From Waddliaceae bacterium (GTDB taxonomy: Bacteria > Chlamydiota > Chlamydiia > Chlamydiales > SLFE01): DNA of 7,256 nt. The notes under the pieces were generated by a model that had not been told where the DNA came from, ran no database searches, and saw nothing but the letters and a program-made list of their open reading frames with translations. Shown here piece after piece: positions 1 to 6,962 of the stretch. The stretch covers positions 1 to 7,256 of the forward strand of contig CAWAPJ010000040.1 in NCBI GenBank assembly GCA_963783885.1. Direction: 5' to 3'. How positions within the stretch are numbered: the first letter of the stretch is position 1; each line of letters opens with the position of its first letter. The translations under genes and the position numbers were made by a program.

Positions 1-1
1 T

Positions 2-112
2 TAGAGAACGAAGCGCGGGCGACGGTATGCAAGGCGTCCGATGCAGGCAACCCCTCTAGGGGTTGTCGAAGCAGGACAACGCAGCAGACCGGAAGCCCCC
101 GCAAGTTCTCTA
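2..112. mobile_element. ERIC/RPE-like palindromic repeat element (putative MITE)
   Basis: Terminal inverted repeat TAGAGAAC (2-9)/GTTCTCTA (105-112). Nested stems: GCGCGGGC 13-20/GCCCCCGC 95-102 (1 mismatch), CGGT 23-26/ACCG 88-91, TGC 28-30/GCA 84-86, GCG+TCC 34-39/GGA 74-76+CGC 80-82, TGC 42-44/GCA 71-73, apical GGCAACCCC 46-54/GGGGTTGTC 59-67. TA at both ends. Confidence 0.7.
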
Positions 113-153
113 GGGGCGTAGATCGCCGAACGCTTACAAATAAAGCTTTTTTT

Positions 154-930
154 TCAATTTAACAAACGCGCTAGATTGTCATCGATAAGGATACCGCATG
201 CTACAAGTACAACGTTGACCGCTGTTCGAGGTATAAGGCCTGCGTATAAAGTTCGGATTTTTTGTTTGAAGGACTGGACTTTAAGACTTCTCCAAATTCC
301 CTTGATTGTGCATGAAGGATCTACCTGTAAATTAATGCGAAATACTTGGAGAGGCTGTGTTGCTATGCAAGTGCCGAAGCCTGTAGCCAAACTGCTGAAT
401 AATATTGCTAGAGAAGGGTCTACTCCTTTATTGGATATCTTCCGCTGCAATACAGCTCCCCAAGTCAGCACTCCGCCGACTGCGATACAGTCGCGCCCCA
501 GAGTAGGAAGAAATCCCCTATAGAGTCCTCGGAAGCCATCGCAGCGAATGATTTCCCGGAATAAGGACAGATTCCCATTTCCGGTTTTATTATCTAAGGC
601 GGCAACCCGCTCACCCGGACAAGCCGCAACGACCGAAGCACCACCGGAAATCAATCCAATGACTAATTCAGTACCATCTGTTTGCTTCCATTTCCATCTT
701 TCAAGCCCATTCCGAAGAGCCCCTTTGCTAAGATGGGCGACACACATAAACCCGAAGTAGCTGAAAAAATTTGCAGAGGCACCCCGCCAAATATCCTGAA
801 GACGAAGCGGCATATTCTCTACTCTGCAATACTGCCAATGCAAAAGGGGATTAGTTGCAAAGGTCGCACTGACTGCGCTCACCGCTCCTTGAAGGAAGTC
901 TCTTGAGGTACTGGCAGATGATGGATTCAT
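154..930 (-). CDS. Mitochondrial carrier family (SLC25/Mito_carr) protein, 258 aa
   Basis: Three repeats, each with a small-residue-rich helix ending in a signature Pro (P28 NPLLHWQ, P105 CPGERVA, P193 QPLQVFR) and followed by an aromatic-x-G motif (WRG 48-50, EIIRCDGFRGLYRGF 126-140, LYAGLIPR 228-235). ATG 928-930, TGA 154-156. Confidence 0.85.
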   Translation of the reverse strand: MNPSSASTSRDFLQGAVSAVSATFATNPLLHWQYCRVENMPLRLQDIWRGASANFFSYFGFMCVAHLSKGALRNGLERWKWKQTDGTELVIGLISGGASVVAACPGERVAALDNKTGNGNLSLFREIIRCDGFRGLYRGFLPTLGRDCIAVGGVLTWGAVLQRKISNKGVDPSLAILFSSLATGFGTCIATQPLQVFRINLQVDPSCTIKGIWRSLKVQSFKQKIRTLYAGLIPRTAVNVVLVACGILIDDNLARLLN

Positions 931-1134
931 AATTTTCCGATACTTTTATTAGGCAATATACTTAAAAGATTTTTTCTTGTATTTAGTTCTTCTGACTGCA
1001 GAGGAATAAATATGGCTCGAACAATATTGACAAAAGAAGAAGACGAATAGGCACACTATACGAGAAGCATGCTGCAAATTTTATTGGGATGGTAACAATT
1101 GGCTGTATTCTTCAGTGGGCAATCTTTTAAAAAA

Positions 1135-1239
1135 TACCACAGAGAGCACAGAGATCACTGAGAGAGATTTATATGGTACAGTTCACTAAAATAGGTAACA
1201 CTTTCCTTCCTCTCTGTGATCTCTGTGGGCTCTGTGGTA
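1135..1239. repeat. Long inverted repeat of (CACAGAGnn)x3 units, MITE-like
   Basis: 30-nt arms at 1135-1164 and 1210-1239 match at 27/30 as reverse complements, with a 45-nt spacer. AAAAAAT flanks the ACCAC...GTGGT core on both sides (1129-1135 and 1239-1245). Confidence 0.8.
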
Positions 1240-1291
1240 AAAAATTCATAGCAGACATTTTGAAATTAAAAGAAATGGAATCGCTGATTAT

Positions 1292-1321
1292 ACCTTCTAG
1301 GTACTCTACCTAAATGAAGGT
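1292..1321 (-). terminator. Hairpin downstream of purT, possible terminator or stabiliser
   Basis: ACCTTC-TAGGTA-ctc-TACCTA-aat-GAAGGT, about 30 nt past the purT stop. No convincing U-tract. Confidence 0.3.
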
Positions 1322-1350
1322 CATCTTTCGCCTTAGGTCACAATCATGGG

Positions 1351-2547
1351 TTAAAGTCCGATTTTTACTCCGCTGCTTGCGCTTTTGGCTTTTTGAAGGG
1401 CCTCTTCAAGAGTTTCTCCAAGTGCAAGAGCCACGCCCATTCTCCTCTCCCCATCCACCTCGGGTTTTCCGAAGAGTCTCAGCTCAGTCCCTTCTTGAGA
1501 GAGCGCTTCCTTAAGGTTGTTGAAGCTGACATTTTTCGAACTTCCTCGAGCTATTATTACCGATGATGCGGCAGGTCCCAGTTGCTTGATTTTAGGAATG
1601 GGCAATCCCAAAACCGCTCTTGCGTGGAGAGCAAACTGGGAAAGGTTTTGAGATATCATGGTTACCATGCCTGTGTCATGAGGCCTCGGCGACACTTCAT
1701 TAAATAGGACGTCTTTGCCTTTAATAAAAAGCTCTACACCAAAAATGCCCGTACCCCCTAGTGAAGAGGTGATTCTTTCGGCGATGGACTTTGCTTTCTC
1801 AAGAGCCGTCTGGGGCATAGGGTGGGGCTGCCAGGACTGCCTGTAATCCCCTTTTTCCTGCAGATGGCCGATGGGCTCGCAAAATGACGTGATGATGTTT
1901 CCGTCGGAACCGGCATGCCGCACGGTCAGCAGAGTGATCTCGTAGTCAAAATCAATGTAGCCTTCGACGATCACTTTGTCCGCTTTCCCGCGCGCGCGCT
2001 CGCAGGCAGAGTCCCAGGCCGCCTCAGCCTCTCTCTCGGTTTTGACAAAAGACTGCCCTTTCCCCGAGGAGCTCATAATTGGTTTCACCACGCAGGGAAA
2101 GCCGATACTTTTCACCGCTATTAAATAGTCTTCTTTGGTGGGCACAATTCTATAGGGCGTTGTCGGCAGCCTAAGCTCTTCGGCGGCATGCCGCCGAATC
2201 CTCTCCCGATTCATCGCTGTGCTGACAGCCTTTGCCGTGGGAATGACCCGAAAGCCTTTTTCTTCCAGTTTGATGAGCGCGTCGACAGCGATAGCCTCGA
2301 TTTCAGGAATGATAAGATCGGGCTGCTCCTCTTCGATCAAATGCAATAAGGCCTTTTCATCGAGCATGGATACCGTATGGGATCGATGTGCCACCTGCAT
2401 CGCGGGAGCATTGAGGTACCTATCGACAGCGACAACCTCCACACCCAATCTTTGCAATTCAATGACCAGTTCCTTTCCGAGCTCACCGGCTCCCAGAATC
2501 AGGGCCGTTGTGGCATTTGACGACAAGGGCGTTCCAATAGCGGGCAT
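1351..2547 (-). CDS. purT: Formate-dependent phosphoribosylglycinamide formyltransferase (GAR transformylase 2, ATP-grasp)
   Basis: Diagnostic motifs [73 protein letters not shown] and RRMGVALA; 398 aa. Confidence 0.97.
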
Positions 2548-2550
2548 AAA

Positions 2551-3132
2551 CTACTTGCCCCAGATTTCTTTTAGCCGGCTGTCGCGGCCGCATAAAGTTC
2601 GGTAAAATTTGTAGCGGTAGGGGTGCTTTTTATAGTATTCTTGATGATACTCTTCCGCTGGCCAAAATTTCTCTAAAGGGACGATCTGTGTATACACATG
2701 CTTCACTTTCCCCTCTTTCAAAAGCTTCTCTTTGGATTCTTCGGCAAGCTTTTTTTGCTCTTCGTTTTCATAAAAAATGGCCGAGCGGTATTGAGAGCCC
2801 TTATCGCAAAACTGCTGGTCTTTCACAGTCGGGTCGATATTGACCCAAAACACGTCGAGAAGTTTTTGATAGCTAATTTTTTGAGGATCATAAGTGATCT
2901 GAATTGATTCGGCATGTCCTGTCGTTCCTGATGAAACCTGCTCATATGTGGGGTTTTCTGTATGTCCGCCGGCATAGCCGACTTTTGTCGAGACAACGCC
3001 ATCGAGCTTATCAAACGGCGGCTGCATGCACCAAAAGCAGCCTCCGGCAAAAGTGGCGGTTTGCAGCCCGCTTTCCTCAGCAAATAAAGAGAGCGAAAAG
3101 AGACTGAGAAGAATCACTAAAATGTACATCAT
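2551..3132 (-). CDS. msrA: Peptide-methionine (S)-S-oxide reductase with N-terminal signal peptide, 193 aa
   Basis: ATFAGGCFWC, GYAGG, PTYEQV, GHAE, DKGSQYRSAIF and AEEYHQEYY motifs. ATG at 3132 has GGAG 8 nt upstream and is preferred over the TTG at 3174. Hydrophobic leader MMYILVILLSLFSLSLFA|EE. Stop lies 3 nt before the purT ATG. Confidence 0.95.
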   Translation of the reverse strand: MMYILVILLSLFSLSLFAEESGLQTATFAGGCFWCMQPPFDKLDGVVSTKVGYAGGHTENPTYEQVSSGTTGHAESIQITYDPQKISYQKLLDVFWVNIDPTVKDQQFCDKGSQYRSAIFYENEEQKKLAEESKEKLLKEGKVKHVYTQIVPLEKFWPAEEYHQEYYKKHPYRYKFYRTLCGRDSRLKEIWGK

Positions 3133-3239
3133 CCTTTTTTCTCCAATACACTTCCGAAAATACCACTTTATCAATTTTTTGCTTTATTAAGAATACAAAT
3201 CCCTTTATGTGTAGGAAAGGATAAATAAAGGATTTTTTT

Positions 3240-5108
3240 ATGGAGCATGATCTTCGCGAAGATGAACAAGCGGCAGAAGAGACAAAAGAAATTGCCGAAG
3301 AAGCCAGAGACTTTGCCTATGAACACCCTAGCTTTGGCGCCCAGCTCTTTATGGGTAAGTTTGCCTGGGATATGATGTACCCTTTTCCCGAACAGGATGA
3401 AGAGGATAAGAAAATCGGCGATGAGTTTATCGAAAAAATCGAAACCCTTCTCAAAGAAAAGCTCGATCCTGAAGAGGTCGACCGTACGCGGGAGATTCCT
3501 CAGAAAGTGCGCGACGAAATGGCCAAGCTGGGGGTCTTTGCCCTAAAAGTTCCCAAAAAATACGACGGCCTTGAATTTTCCCAAATGAACTATAACCGCA
3601 CCGTGATGAAAGTCGCGTCCTACTGCGGAGCCACAGCAGTGCTCATTTCAGCCCATCAGTCTATTGGCGTTCCTCAGCCGCTGAAATTTTACGGTACCGA
3701 AGAACAGAAGAAAAAATACTATCCCCCCTTCCGCAAAGGGGCAATTTCCGCTTTCGCTCTGACCGAACCGGCTGTCGGCTCCGACCCTGCCCGCATGTCG
3801 ACTGAAGCTGTTCTTTCCGAAGACGGGACTCATTATGTCCTCAATGGCGAAAAGCTGTGGTGCACCAACGGCACCATCGCCGATGTCATCATTGTCATAG
3901 CGAAAACCGCTCCGAAAATTGTCAAAGGGAAAGAAAGGCAGCAAATCACTGCCTTTATCCTCGAAATGAGGACTAAAGGTGTCGAAGTCGTTCATCGATG
4001 CGAATTTATGGGATTAAGTGGGATCTATAACGGACTGCTCCGCTTTACCAACGTTAAAATCCCTGTGGAAAACCGGCTAGGCGATGAAGGGAGAGGGCTG
4101 GCCATGGCCCTTGAAACGATCAATGTAGGCCGCCTGACGCTGCCTGCTGCCTCGACAGGCGGAGCCAAACAGTGCCTATCGATCGCCAGAAGATGGGGCG
4201 CAAGCCGGATCCAGTGGGGGCAGCCTATCGGACTGCATGAAGCAGGCAGGCAAAAGATAGCCTATATTTCCTCGACAACATTCGCCATGGAGGCGGTCAG
4301 CTGGCTGACAAGCATGTGGCAGGACATGGGAGGGATCGATATTCGTATTGAAGCCGCTATGGCTAAATTATTTACAACCGAGGAGTTTTGGAAGATAACC
4401 GACGAGACCCTGCAGCTAAGAGGAGGCAGAGGGTATGAGACAGGACGATCGCTCAAAGCCAGAGGGGAACCCCCCTATTCTGTCGAAAGGGCTATGAGAG
4501 ACTGCCGCATTAATCGCATCCTCGAAGGGTCCTCCGAGATCATGAAGCTCTTTTTGACCCGCGAGGCAGTCGACACCCATATCAAGAGGCTCATGCCGCT
4601 TCTTAAAGGCGAATTCAAAGGAATGGACAAATACAAGTATATCGCAAAACTCGTCGGGCACTACAGTTGTTGGTACCAGAGCCGCTTTTTTAAGTCGTTC
4701 AAATCCTCCTCCTATCCTGAGGCGGGCAAGCTTGAAAAGCATTGCAAATTTATTGAAAAAACTGCCCATAAATTAGCGAGGAACATATTCTTTTATATGG
4801 CCAAGTATCAAAAAAAGCTCGAGAAAAAACAATTGCTTTTGGGCCGTTTGATCGATATCGGAACAGATCTATTCATGATGGCCGCAACGTGTTCTTTTGC
4901 GATTAAAGAGGAAAAGAGGATCGGAAACGACTCCCCCATCGACCTGGCCGATTATTTCTGCGAAGTTGCCAGAAGACGAATTGAAGAAAACTTCAAGGCT
5001 GTCAAGGACAACGACGACCGGCATACAAATTCTATCGCCAAAAGAGTCATAGACAATGACTATACTTGGCTGGAAAAAGGGATCATGTGGATTGGGCCCG
5101 AAGAATAA
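3240..5108 (+). CDS. Long acyl-CoA dehydrogenase (FadE10/VLCAD/ACAD9-like), 622 aa
   Basis: AHQSIG, FALTEPAVGSD, LNGEKLWCTNG, GGRGYE and RILEGSSEI (catalytic Glu) motifs, plus a C-terminal extension of about 180 aa. N-terminal AEEAR...PSF..QLFMG resembles mycobacterial FadE10 (recalled). AAGGA SD 7 nt upstream. Confidence 0.93.
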   Translation: MEHDLREDEQAAEETKEIAEEARDFAYEHPSFGAQLFMGKFAWDMMYPFPEQDEEDKKIGDEFIEKIETLLKEKLDPEEVDRTREIPQKVRDEMAKLGVFALKVPKKYDGLEFSQMNYNRTVMKVASYCGATAVLISAHQSIGVPQPLKFYGTEEQKKKYYPPFRKGAISAFALTEPAVGSDPARMSTEAVLSEDGTHYVLNGEKLWCTNGTIADVIIVIAKTAPKIVKGKERQQITAFILEMRTKGVEVVHRCEFMGLSGIYNGLLRFTNVKIPVENRLGDEGRGLAMALETINVGRLTLPAASTGGAKQCLSIARRWGASRIQWGQPIGLHEAGRQKIAYISSTTFAMEAVSWLTSMWQDMGGIDIRIEAAMAKLFTTEEFWKITDETLQLRGGRGYETGRSLKARGEPPYSVERAMRDCRINRILEGSSEIMKLFLTREAVDTHIKRLMPLLKGEFKGMDKYKYIAKLVGHYSCWYQSRFFKSFKSSSYPEAGKLEKHCKFIEKTAHKLARNIFFYMAKYQKKLEKKQLLLGRLIDIGTDLFMMAATCSFAIKEEKRIGNDSPIDLADYFCEVARRRIEENFKAVKDNDDRHTNSIAKRVIDNDYTWLEKGIMWIGPEE

Positions 5109-5532
5109 CGATCACTACCGCAAGCTGGAGAGGATGTACCTCTCTGCAGCTATCAATAAATGGTATAAGCCCAGGATCGCTATCTCCGACAGGCATTGCG
5201 AGATCACAATGCCGCTCGACCCTAAATTTTACCATGCCGCCGAGGCGGTCCATGGTTCTATCTATTTTAAAATGCTCGACGATGCGGCGTTTTTCGCCGC
5301 AAATTCCATTATTCTTGATGTTTTTGCTCTGACAACTAATTTTAACATCAATCTCTTGAAACCGGTCTCAAAAGGGATGATAAAATCGAGTGCCGACCTG
5401 ACTTTCGCATCAAAAAGCTCCTACATTGCCGAAGCCAGACTCTTTGATGAAACCGGCGACCTGCTGGCAGTCGGCATGGGAACATTTGTAAAAAGCAAAA
5501 TCGCCCTATCTTCACTTGAAAGTTATCAATAA
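5092..5532 (+). CDS. PaaI-like hotdog-fold thioesterase
   Basis: VHGSIYFKMLDDAAFFAA active-site helix, NINLLKPV strand, and C-terminal AEARLFD..LLAVGMGTF. Start uncertain: TTG 5092 (AAGGGA 9 nt upstream) or ATG 5056; both overlap the ACAD 3' end. Confidence 0.88.
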   Translation: MGPKNNDHYRKLERMYLSAAINKWYKPRIAISDRHCEITMPLDPKFYHAAEAVHGSIYFKMLDDAAFFAANSIILDVFALTTNFNINLLKPVSKGMIKSSADLTFASKSSYIAEARLFDETGDLLAVGMGTFVKSKIALSSLESYQ

Positions 5533-5593: not shown

Positions 5594-6196
5594 TTAGAGA
5601 TTTGTTTTGTTTTTCGTAGACTGATTTAAACTTCCGTTGCTTTTTACGTTTGTCGGTTTGCTGCTTTTGATGTTATTGTTATTGGGGTTGTGCTGGTAGT
5701 AGCCTTGGCTGTTGCGTTGATTCGGTCTCCAGGCAGGAGCAGGGCAGCTGCCGTTTGCACATGAAGATCCTTGATTATCGTAGTAGCTGCATTTTTTGTA
5801 TTTGCAGCATGGAATGTATTCGCAGCATTGGTCGTAGACAGTTCTTTTTCTATATGTGCAATAACGTTCGTAGTGGCACTTAGGAACTTTTACGCAATAT
5901 GTTTCATAGTAATACTGTGGAACATATCGGCAGCACCTTTTTTGCCTTGTTTGATACTCGCAAGTTTCGCATTTTTTGCATTTCCACACAGGCTCATAAA
6001 CGCAGCGTGGTTTGCAATAGTATCTTGGTTTGTATGTCACTACCGGCTGATAGCAGATGGTAGGACATTGACAACAATTGTATTCCCGGCCGCATTCAAC
6101 GCCGTCGCGAGCAACCTGGTGGTTGCCCCATCCGGCAAATGCGGGCAGGAATGATAGCACACCTAGTGCAAAAAGCACTGAAAAGTAACGCTTCAT
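5594..6196 (-). CDS. Exported Cys/Tyr-rich 12-aa-repeat protein A, 200 aa (putative envelope protein)
   Basis: Strong SD GGAGGT (6202-6207); signal peptide ending AFA|GW; 22 Cys and 23 Tyr; seven 12-aa repeats; N/Q/S/K-rich tail. Confidence 0.85.
   Translation of the reverse strand: MKRYFSVLFALGVLSFLPAFAGWGNHQVARDGVECGREYNCCQCPTICYQPVVTYKPRYYCKPRCVYEPVWKCKKCETCEYQTRQKRCCRYVPQYYYETYCVKVPKCHYERYCTYRKRTVYDQCCEYIPCCKYKKCSYYDNQGSSCANGSCPAPAWRPNQRNSQGYYQHNPNNNNIKSSKPTNVKSNGSLNQSTKNKTNL
5789..6040 (-). repeat. 7 x 12-aa coding repeat in protein A
   Basis: VTYKPRYYCKPR / CVYEPVWKCKKC / ETCEYQTRQKRC / CRYVPQYYYETY / CVKVPKCHYERY / CTYRKRTVYDQC / CEYIPCCKYKKC. Confidence 0.8.
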
Positions 6197-6419: not shown

Positions 6420-6902
6420 CTATTTACATTCTATGCAACCTTGCGGGGGACACTCGCTGCATTGACTGCAGTCCGGAGGATAATACTTGCACCTTCTATA
6501 GCATTGTTTGGGAACCCAATTGACATGCCGATTGTATTTAACGCATTTCTGATACGTATAATACCTGCTATAGGTATCAACCGGCTCATACTGCAGGATT
6601 TTTTGCGTATAGACTTTTGGTTCGTATTTAATAAATTTTTGCTCATAGTAGCGGGGAACATATTTGACTCCCCTATTCCATTTTTCTTCGGGTATGTAAG
6701 TGCATTCGGGAATTTTGCATGTCTCGCATACATACTTCACATAAGGTTGGTAACAGTACCTAGGCTCCTGATCGCAACCTCCCTGATACCAGCCGACAGG
6801 CATCGAACACCCCGACCGGCATGGCCGTTTTTGACGCCAACCAGCTTCTAAAGAAGAAAAAACAATCAGAAAATACAAAATGATTGAAATTGTAGATTTC
6901 AT
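6420..6902 (-). CDS. Exported Cys/Tyr-rich 12-aa-repeat protein B, 160 aa, paralog of A
   Basis: ATG 6902 with GGGG 8 nt upstream (alternative TTG 6908); signal peptide ending LEA|GW; 15 Cys and 21 Tyr; C-terminal CxxCxxC...CxxC. Confidence 0.82.
   Translation of the reverse strand: MKSTISIILYFLIVFSSLEAGWRQKRPCRSGCSMPVGWYQGGCDQEPRYCYQPYVKYVCETCKIPECTYIPEEKWNRGVKYVPRYYEQKFIKYEPKVYTQKILQYEPVDTYSRYYTYQKCVKYNRHVNWVPKQCYRRCKYYPPDCSQCSECPPQGCIECK
6489..6740 (-). repeat. 7 x 12-aa coding repeat in protein B
   Basis: VKYVCETCKIPE / CTYIPEEKWNRG / VKYVPRYYEQKF / IKYEPKVYTQKI / LQYEPVDTYSRY / YTYQKCVKYNRH / VNWVPKQCYRRC. Confidence 0.8.
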
Positions 6903-6962
6903 CCCCAAAACCCCAAATTAGTTATCAAACCTTACTTTCCGGATTTCGGAGTTATTTCGCAA

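Follow-up and report, generated by a model that had tools for sequence, protein, structure and literature searches.

A stripped-down mitochondrial-type carrier gene in a Waddliaceae-type genome of the order Chlamydiales

Mitochondrial carriers of the SLC25 family have been treated as a eukaryotic signature, and the Legionella protein LncP, a carrier-family protein delivered to mitochondria by the Dot/Icm system (PMC3252375), as a curiosity; yet about a quarter of the sampled Chlamydiales have such carriers. In the literature searched, a single sentence on chlamydial carriers was found, which lists 'a few Chlamydiales' in Pfam (PMC5621508). The gene described here is located at positions 154..930 (minus strand) of a window of 7256 bases. 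The window is the whole contig C40 of a 2.16-Mb metagenome-assembled genome (MAG) of the Waddliaceae type (order Chlamydiales), which consists of 46 contigs and is 88.9% complete with 0.03% contamination (G000). An initial annotation had read the gene as one of the rare bacterial members of a eukaryotic family, acquired from a eukaryotic host and a candidate effector aimed at host mitochondria. The gene is a stripped-down carrier within the known, barely described bacterial carriers of mitochondrial type.

The carrier gene and its predicted fold

The gene starts with an ATG at 930-928 and ends with a stop codon at 156-154. According to the list of open reading frames (ORFs), it encodes 258 amino acids (aa) without internal stops. 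The product passes the cut-off of the Pfam family PF00153 (Mito_carr) with an E value of 5e-19 and 68.3 bits, compared to the required 22.3 bits. It is the sole PF00153 match in its own genome, and 14 control genomes yielded no PF00153 matches. Pfam recognises two stretches of the protein, which correspond to repeats 2 and 3 (aa ~87-157 and ~173-258 in six-frame matches); repeat 1 (aa 1-84) is too divergent and lies below Pfam recognition. Comparison of the repeats with each other at profile level (hhalign) gave weak E values of 0.0098 for repeats 1 and 2, 0.029 for repeats 1 and 3 and 1.6e-4 for repeats 2 and 3. The weak matches of repeat 1 to the other two repeats are in register.

An AlphaFold2 model based on a 126-row alignment reached a predicted local distance difference test score (pLDDT) of 93.0 and a predicted template modelling score (pTM) of 0.88. 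It features six long helices (H1 to H6), and short helices on the matrix side are modelled in domains 2 and 3, with none in domain 1. All three model-defined domains are encoded on the minus strand. Domain 1 (679..930, aa 1-84) comprises H1 (6-37) and H2 (51-78) and carries the signature P28-L30-Q33-V37. Domain 2 (421..678, aa 85-170) comprises H3 (85-116), the matrix helices (120-137) and H4 (140-167); it holds the best Pfam stretch (aa 87-156) and the signature P105-E107-A110-N114. Domain 3 (157..420, aa 171-258) is made up of H5 (172-203), the matrix helices (209-228) and H6 (232-257), with the signature P193-Q195-R198-Q202 and the second Pfam match (nt 151-414).

When the model was compared with the Protein Data Bank (PDB) using Foldseek, 14 matches were obtained at E <= 0.001, and the top ranks listed are mitochondrial-carrier entries. 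They include chains of Tetrahymena complex IV entries (TMq 0.80-0.81), human UCP1 (0.78) and yeast (Aac2, 0.69), bovine and fungal ADP/ATP carriers, whereas the next unrelated matches have a TMq near 0.2. A sequence search of the PDB concurs (UCP1, E 3.2e-5). Pfam gives two repeats; the third comes from the structure model, which has three domains. As judged from the model, the product of 154..930 is a true membrane protein of the SLC25 fold, with six helices in three domains. Of the three-repeat architecture named in the initial annotation, Pfam gives repeats 2 and 3, and the third domain is seen in the model, which matches UCP1 and ADP/ATP carrier structures. The description of an intronless gene beside bacterial purT and msrA was confirmed (TIGR01142; PF01625).

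The motifs Px[DE]xx[RK]xxxQ for H1, H3 and H5 and [YF][DE]xx[RK] for H2, H4 and H6 (PMC12410006) served as the reference for the motif states of the protein. None of the three signatures given above conforms to the first, matrix-side motif. The cytoplasmic motif is also absent from H2 (K69-G70-..-R73), H4 (W157-G158-..-L161) and H6 (I249-D250-..-L253). Under the pairing rule for matrix salt bridges, which comes from the ADP/ATP carrier, only E107 and R198 can form a bridge, with Q202 as a brace. These three residues are invariant across the subfamily to which the protein belongs, as are P193 and Q195. E107, R146 and D147 do not vary either in an 8-row alignment (A4) or in a 7-row subfamily alignment (A5). 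The cytoplasmic gate can hold at most a D250-R73 bridge, in a register that was taken from the UCP1 alignment and the contact-point spacing and is uncertain by one residue.

The contact points were assigned as S57 (I), R146-D147 (II) and V238-N239 (III), with no charge at I and III. Of the three 'arginine triplet' or contact-point positions, one alone keeps an arginine; it is R146, which aligns with the arginine in H4 of UCP1. In nucleotide carriers, contact point II is G-[IVLM] and contact point III is usually positive (PMC10251735). Here, the subfamily-invariant R146-D147 stands in place of a nucleotide-type contact point II, and the positive charge at point III is missing. R-[DE] at contact point II is the type found in amino-acid carriers. 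The single arginine and the R-D pair make a polyanionic nucleotide an improbable substrate. Further invariant residues are N54 and N239, which fall on the contact-point registers or next to them, and H31 and R235, which presumably face the cavity. The proline kinks are kept in all three repeats (P28, P105 and P193), and [YWF][RK]G is kept in two of three (W48-R49-G50 and Y137-R138-G139).

A eukaryotic contamination or a chimeric contig had to be considered, given that the contig is short, the gene lies only 153 bases from its end and the locus L014 from another MAG of the order looks like a eukaryotic contig with a canonical carrier gene. However, the congener G001 encodes an ortholog (258 aa, 89% identical) on a contig of 2,293,731 bases. 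Its gene order is that of the window: orphan ORF, carrier, purT, msrA, acyl-CoA dehydrogenase and two Cys-rich ORFs. A contig of 1244 bases from an independent assembler (run X1, which may be the MAG's own sample) bridges positions 457-1700 of the window and joins the carrier to purT across the spacer. Just downstream of the stop codon of the carrier, at 1..145, lies a dispersed repeat of ~135 nt with short palindromes. In a blastn search of the genome, it was found in ~15 other places on nine other contigs with 74-92% identity. In G001, the carrier is followed by a 738-aa ORF, and contig C12 of the MAG ends 129 nt past the start of a homolog of this ORF. The contig end is thus an assembly break at the dispersed repeat, and the gene to be expected next is the one at the end of C12. 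The GC content of the gene (0.472) matches that of the genome's long ORFs (0.464 ± 0.045). The congener's gene order, the repeat together with the end of C12 and the bridging contig refute an artefact such as a chimeric contig, which we regard as next to impossible.

Against the congener's ortholog, the ratio of non-synonymous to synonymous substitution rates (dN/dS) of the carrier is 0.18, compared to 0.04-0.16 for five neighbour genes. This value indicates that the carrier is under purifying selection. Our results show an intact, bacterial and conserved gene for a carrier-fold protein.

Carriers across the Chlamydiales

Contrary to the initial description of bacterial members as rare, carriers are widespread in this order. 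PF00153 matches above the cut-off were obtained for 104 of 400 sampled genomes and for 83 of 216 genera; among high-quality genomes the count is 80 of 303, and one genome was left unscored. Many of these matches sit on megabase contigs. The chlamydial carrier genes are chromosomal, intronless and about 250-300 aa in length. One of the 104 positive genomes is probably counted on the basis of eukaryotic contamination in its bin: locus L014 (G216:C117, 3.1 kb) shows a canonical three-repeat carrier (Pfam E 1e-56) between SNF5 and uricase genes.

The gene context was surveyed in 29 of 30 fetched loci (L040 was left out), a sample biased towards the best Pfam scores. At no fewer than 20 of the 29 loci, the carrier adjoins co-directional bacterial transporter or enzyme genes. 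An MFS transporter gene lies immediately upstream on the same strand at 12 loci and often overlaps the start of the carrier. Two of these 12 pairs (L035 and L042) are preceded by a thiamine pyrophosphate (TPP) riboswitch above the Rfam gathering score. At three loci (L016, L019 and L021), carriers in tandem adjoin genes for thiamine pyrophosphokinase and/or transketolase. An amino-acid or polyamine context characterises four further loci, with a pyridoxal phosphate (PLP) enzyme in one, a Na:alanine symporter in two and arginase, S-adenosylmethionine decarboxylase and EamA in one. At one locus, the carrier overlaps a TauD gene. The linkage with bacterial transporters, enzymes and TPP riboswitches speaks for many chlamydial carriers being both controlled by bacterial metabolism and in its service.

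Some of these arrangements deserve a separate description. Riboswitch, MFS gene and carrier follow each other with overlapping ORFs at 48-2274 of L035 and 164-2229 of L042, in two unrelated chlamydial genomes; at the ten other MFS-carrier loci, no riboswitch was detected within the short flank fetched. The tandem carriers of L016, L019 and L021, which come in pairs flanked by the thiamine pyrophosphokinase and transketolase genes, form a second thiamine-linked arrangement. In L027 (3-3234), arginase, carrier, S-adenosylmethionine decarboxylase and EamA transporter genes are aligned on one strand, in what looks like a polyamine-related cluster around the carrier.

The subfamily of the window protein is narrow. 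A profile search of 1.84 billion protein representatives gave 6289 matches at E <= 0.001, of which only seven have E <= 1e-30. All seven are at or below 1.1e-53, and a jump to 1e-24 follows. These closest relatives are 239-267 aa in length; they are metagenome proteins and a chlamydial protein from the further genome G003, read from a later start. G000, G001 and G003 all belong to one family. An alignment of seven subfamily members, 36-89% identical to the window protein, has 43 invariant columns. When the subfamily profile was run over the 400 genomes, more than 101 bits were reached only in G000 and G001 (437 bits) and in G003 (142 bits). A scan of metagenome loci found one locus of this subfamily (L044). 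Organism names were obtained for two of 20 representatives looked up, P0010 (Fonticula alba) and P0013 (Parachlamydiales). These are the first named matches past the gap, both fall outside the clade of the window, and the carrier of Fonticula alba is the best eukaryote-labelled match (E 1.6e-24). An alignment-based protein search returned 28 matches, few of them named, and the Atlas contributed generic carrier clusters only.

In a quick IQ-TREE tree of 47 rows, the window protein falls into an 11-row clade (support 98), which is nested in a 37-row group (support 99). The latter also contains a 14-row chlamydial clade of amino-acid context, the clade of a G001 paralog and the Fonticula clade, in a branching order that is an open polytomy. 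FastTree had grouped the window's clade with the amino-acid-context clade (support 66), a grouping that did not recur with IQ-TREE. Across the IQ-TREE tree from them, together with other eukaryote-labelled rows, are the chlamydial carriers of thiamine context. As placed by this tree, in which few rows are labelled, the chlamydial carriers form several clades interleaved with eukaryotic sequences. The window carrier is a member of this chlamydial radiation, as seen from its G001 ortholog, its G003 homolog and the group it forms at a support of 99 with other chlamydial clades. The acquisition from a eukaryotic host put forward in the initial annotation is plausible and no more: the GC content is genome-like, the nearest relatives are metagenome proteins and the G003 protein, the best eukaryote-labelled match reaches an E value of only 1.6e-24, and the clade order is an open polytomy.

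The G001 paralog is a second carrier-family gene (260 aa). Together with a 332-aa orphan ORF, it occupies a 2.7-kb segment at L009 4974-7662 (G001:C4, about 2104974-2107662), which is absent from the collinear contig C29 of G000 (82454-82522).

Possible roles of the carrier

We favour a solute carrier for the bacterium's own nutrition that takes up or exchanges a small host-derived metabolite. Our confidence in this reading, whose membrane, direction and substrate class are inferred, is evenly balanced. It retains the import of host metabolites, one of the two alternatives in the initial annotation; the other, a manipulation of host mitochondria, has less support. Most simply, the protein would sit in the cytoplasmic membrane of the bacterium, and its 'matrix'-side loops would point towards the bacterial cytoplasm. 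Transport would proceed by alternating access around one central site, presumably formed by H31, N54, R146, D147, R235 and N239. The gates would be weak on both sides, with E107-R198 and the Q202 brace inside and D250-R73 at most outside, as expected for a low-barrier uniporter or facilitator instead of a strict high-energy exchanger. According to a 2025 review of SLC25, strong networks go with strict exchange, with substrates that carry charge and with membranes of high potential (PMC12410006). From the sequence, we infer a low-barrier carrier for a small solute that is not strongly anionic. The bacterial membrane is favoured by the operon and riboswitch wiring of the family, by five TLC nucleotide transporters already present in the genome, by the limited number of membrane segments in type III substrates and by the failure to find a VirB4-type ATPase.

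Several observations weigh against this reading. The operon argument is borrowed from other clades of the family, because the context of the window's own subfamily is not conserved. The adjacency of carrier and purT is confined to G000 and G001. The neighbours of the carrier in G003 are a domain-less ORF and a gene for a solute-binding protein, and in L044 it stands beside orphan ORFs and a helix-turn-helix (HTH) gene. A conserved gene partner was consequently rejected for the subfamily. The domain-less 738-aa ORF behind the carrier in G001 and the location of the paralog and its orphan ORF on an indel fit accessory or effector genes. Weak gates would be just as fitting for a protein that causes leakage across a host membrane, the genome, a typical chlamydial one, encodes components of a type III system (SctV and SctN), and LncP provides a precedent for the translocation of a six-helix carrier (PMC3252375). 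The GC content at third codon positions (GC3) is ~1 standard deviation low (0.421 compared to 0.50 ± 0.08 for long ORFs), and the codon index (0.711 compared to 0.776 ± 0.023) is below the 5th percentile of the long ORFs (0.734). With the polytomy in the 37-row group, the tree also does not make the subfamily a sister of the amino-acid-context clade.

An effector similar to LncP, which would be exported, imported into the inner membrane of host mitochondria and shift the metabolite or ion balance there, perhaps by leak or uncoupling, is unlikely in our view. Apart from the LncP precedent and the type III components, it could draw on the Ser/Thr-rich N-terminus of the carrier, the orphan domain-less neighbours, the paralog on the indel and a dN/dS slightly above that of all five neighbour genes. 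LncP, however, uses a type IVB system, and a search of the genome (88.9% complete) for a VirB4-type ATPase gave none, although Dot/Icm-specific parts were not searched for. Surveyed type III substrates have one or two membrane segments and rarely three (PMC6110835), compared to six here. In favour of an effector, the segments of the carrier are only moderately hydrophobic, with one of six segment windows reaching KD 1.6, as reported for secreted membrane proteins (PMC6110835). Such low hydrophobicity, however, is a trait of the family, given a six-peak mean of 1.12 for 32 chlamydial carriers and 1.25 for five eukaryote-labelled ones; with both kinds of carriers alike, hydrophobicity was dropped as an uninformative test of secretion. 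The segments are also less hydrophobic than the genome's polytopic proteins, in a comparison biased by its own threshold. As contact point II is R146-D147 and not G-[IVLM], an ATP carrier of the LncP kind is unlikely, and linkage of the family with bacterial transporters, enzymes and riboswitches fits an effector poorly. On these grounds, the title claim of the initial annotation, an effector aimed at host mitochondria, was not sustained.

Somewhat less probable still is export of the carrier into the membrane of the host-derived vacuole, the inclusion, where it would pass metabolites to the lumen for uptake by a bacterial inner-membrane transporter. The operon-like pairs of MFS transporter and carrier at 12 of 29 loci would make sense for two successive membranes, a type III system is present, and weak gates should be tolerable without a large potential, as strong gates are linked to a high one (PMC12410006). 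Yet this proposal faces the same problem of exporting six segments. The window carrier has no MFS partner, and two transporters of one operon can share a membrane and handle different forms of a substrate. A wider version, by a shade more doubtful, would regard the chlamydial carriers including that of the window as the long-sought solute carriers of the inclusion membrane for vitamins, amino acids and small metabolites, with MFS partners importing these afterwards and weak gates as an adaptation to low potential. We consider it improbable, more so than any of these, that the protein is a degenerate or re-purposed derivative of the carrier fold with a non-transporting role in a membrane, of the sort suggested for carrier-like proteins that have diverged strongly. 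Lpg1137 is a published example of a highly divergent carrier-like protein in bacteria (PMC5621508). The loss of all but one of the three matrix bridges and of two or more of the three cytoplasmic ones, the uncharged contact points I and III (S57 and V238) and the missing matrix helix of repeat 1 would be in line with such a role. Against it stand purifying selection, the 43 invariant columns in seven members, among them R146, D147, N54, N239, H31 and R235, and the invariance of the remaining E107-R198-Q202 set.

Neighbouring genes and comparison with known systems

Upstream of the carrier and in the same direction lies purT (1351..2547, minus strand), which encodes the formate-dependent glycinamide ribonucleotide (GAR) transformylase (TIGR01142, 577.2 bits compared to a cut-off of 502; NF006766, 606 bits). 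It is preceded at a distance of 3 nt by the co-directional msrA (2551..3174, minus strand; PF01625, E 3.5e-66; TIGR00401). The spacer between purT and the carrier (931..1350, minus strand) is 420 nt long, compared to 55 nt in the congener, and blastn synteny with G001 breaks between 950 and 1352 of the window. Within the spacer, a palindromic hairpin of ~105 nt (1135..1239) folds with ~ -50 kcal/mol on either strand and is followed by a T-run on the strand of the gene. Partial copies were detected on contigs C25 and C28 by blastn against the genome, and the hairpin is absent in the congener. It is possibly a terminator or a small repeat element separating the carrier from purT. Upstream of the carrier, an Rfam search at E <= 1 gave no riboswitch, only three sub-threshold hairpin matches of microRNA (miRNA) models on the palindrome, and a scan of the spacer for promoters and terminators was no better than shuffles. 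Control of the window carrier by a riboswitch or promoter was therefore dropped.

In G000, purT was found; purM, purH and purD were not found above the cut-off in this 88.9%-complete genome. The idea of an orphan purT was abandoned because purM is present in G003 and in G001 (G001:C4:1309836-1310735, where it is part of an open frame of 1281 aa that contains one TAG). It is probably the assembly of G000, and not the organism, that lacks the purine genes.

The remaining genes of the window encode a long acyl-CoA dehydrogenase, a hotdog thioesterase and two Cys-rich ORFs. The gene of the hotdog-fold thioesterase (5056-5532) overlaps the 3' end of the acyl-CoA dehydrogenase gene, and 5108-5531 is without counterpart in the otherwise collinear locus of the congener. 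The paralogous Cys- and Tyr-rich proteins encoded at 5594-6196 and 6420-6908 are 27% identical (E 1e-9) and carry signal peptides; no Pfam or NCBIfam family was found for either. The congener has conserved counterparts of the two (dN/dS 0.11 and 0.16), which may be envelope proteins of a new type. The right end of the contig (7000-7256) is 99.6% identical to positions 895-1150 of contig C4, owing either to overlapping contigs in the assembly or to a recent duplication.

If located in the bacterial or the inclusion membrane, carriers of this kind would give obligate intracellular bacteria a so far unrecognised way of drawing nutrients from their hosts. Chlamydial carriers can also be regarded as natural experiments in stripping down the carrier mechanism: the subfamily described here keeps one salt bridge per gate and has one matrix helix fewer, and is still under purifying selection. 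They are relevant, in addition, to the place and time of the carrier family's origin or of its exchange between eukaryotes and their intracellular bacteria.

Compared to chlamydial TLC/NTT transporters (PF03219), of which G000 has five copies, the window protein is a possible functional analogue in the uptake of host metabolites. The TLC/NTT proteins, however, are an unrelated 12-helix family of bacterial origin (PMC3252375). LncP of Legionella pneumophila is likewise a carrier-family protein of a protist-dwelling intracellular bacterium with a host-directed secretion system, but it moves ATP and is delivered by Dot/Icm (PMC3252375). The window protein differs from LncP, with which it was compared by description and not by sequence, in its degenerate signatures and its non-nucleotide contact point II, and in that no VirB4-type ATPase was found in its genome. 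With Lpg1137 of Legionella it shares a bacterial origin, the carrier fold and strongly degenerate repeats or motifs; Lpg1137 is reported to be far more divergent from the Mito_carr repeats (PMC5621508), whereas the window protein passes the Pfam cut-off.

The similarity to SLC25 members such as UCP1 and the ADP/ATP carrier extends to the Pfam match, the six tilted helices in three domains, the proline kinks and the register of R146. In contrast to these, the window protein is bacterially encoded within a bacterial gene neighbourhood, has 258 aa compared to about 300, lacks the matrix helix of domain 1, retains a single matrix bridge out of three and no more than one of the three cytoplasmic bridges, and is uncharged at contact points I and III. 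Other chlamydial carriers come from the same order and fold family, are similar in length, chromosomal and intronless. The subfamily of the window is distinguished from them by its narrow range, its own clade with a support of 98 and a gene neighbourhood without MFS, thiamine or amino-acid partners.

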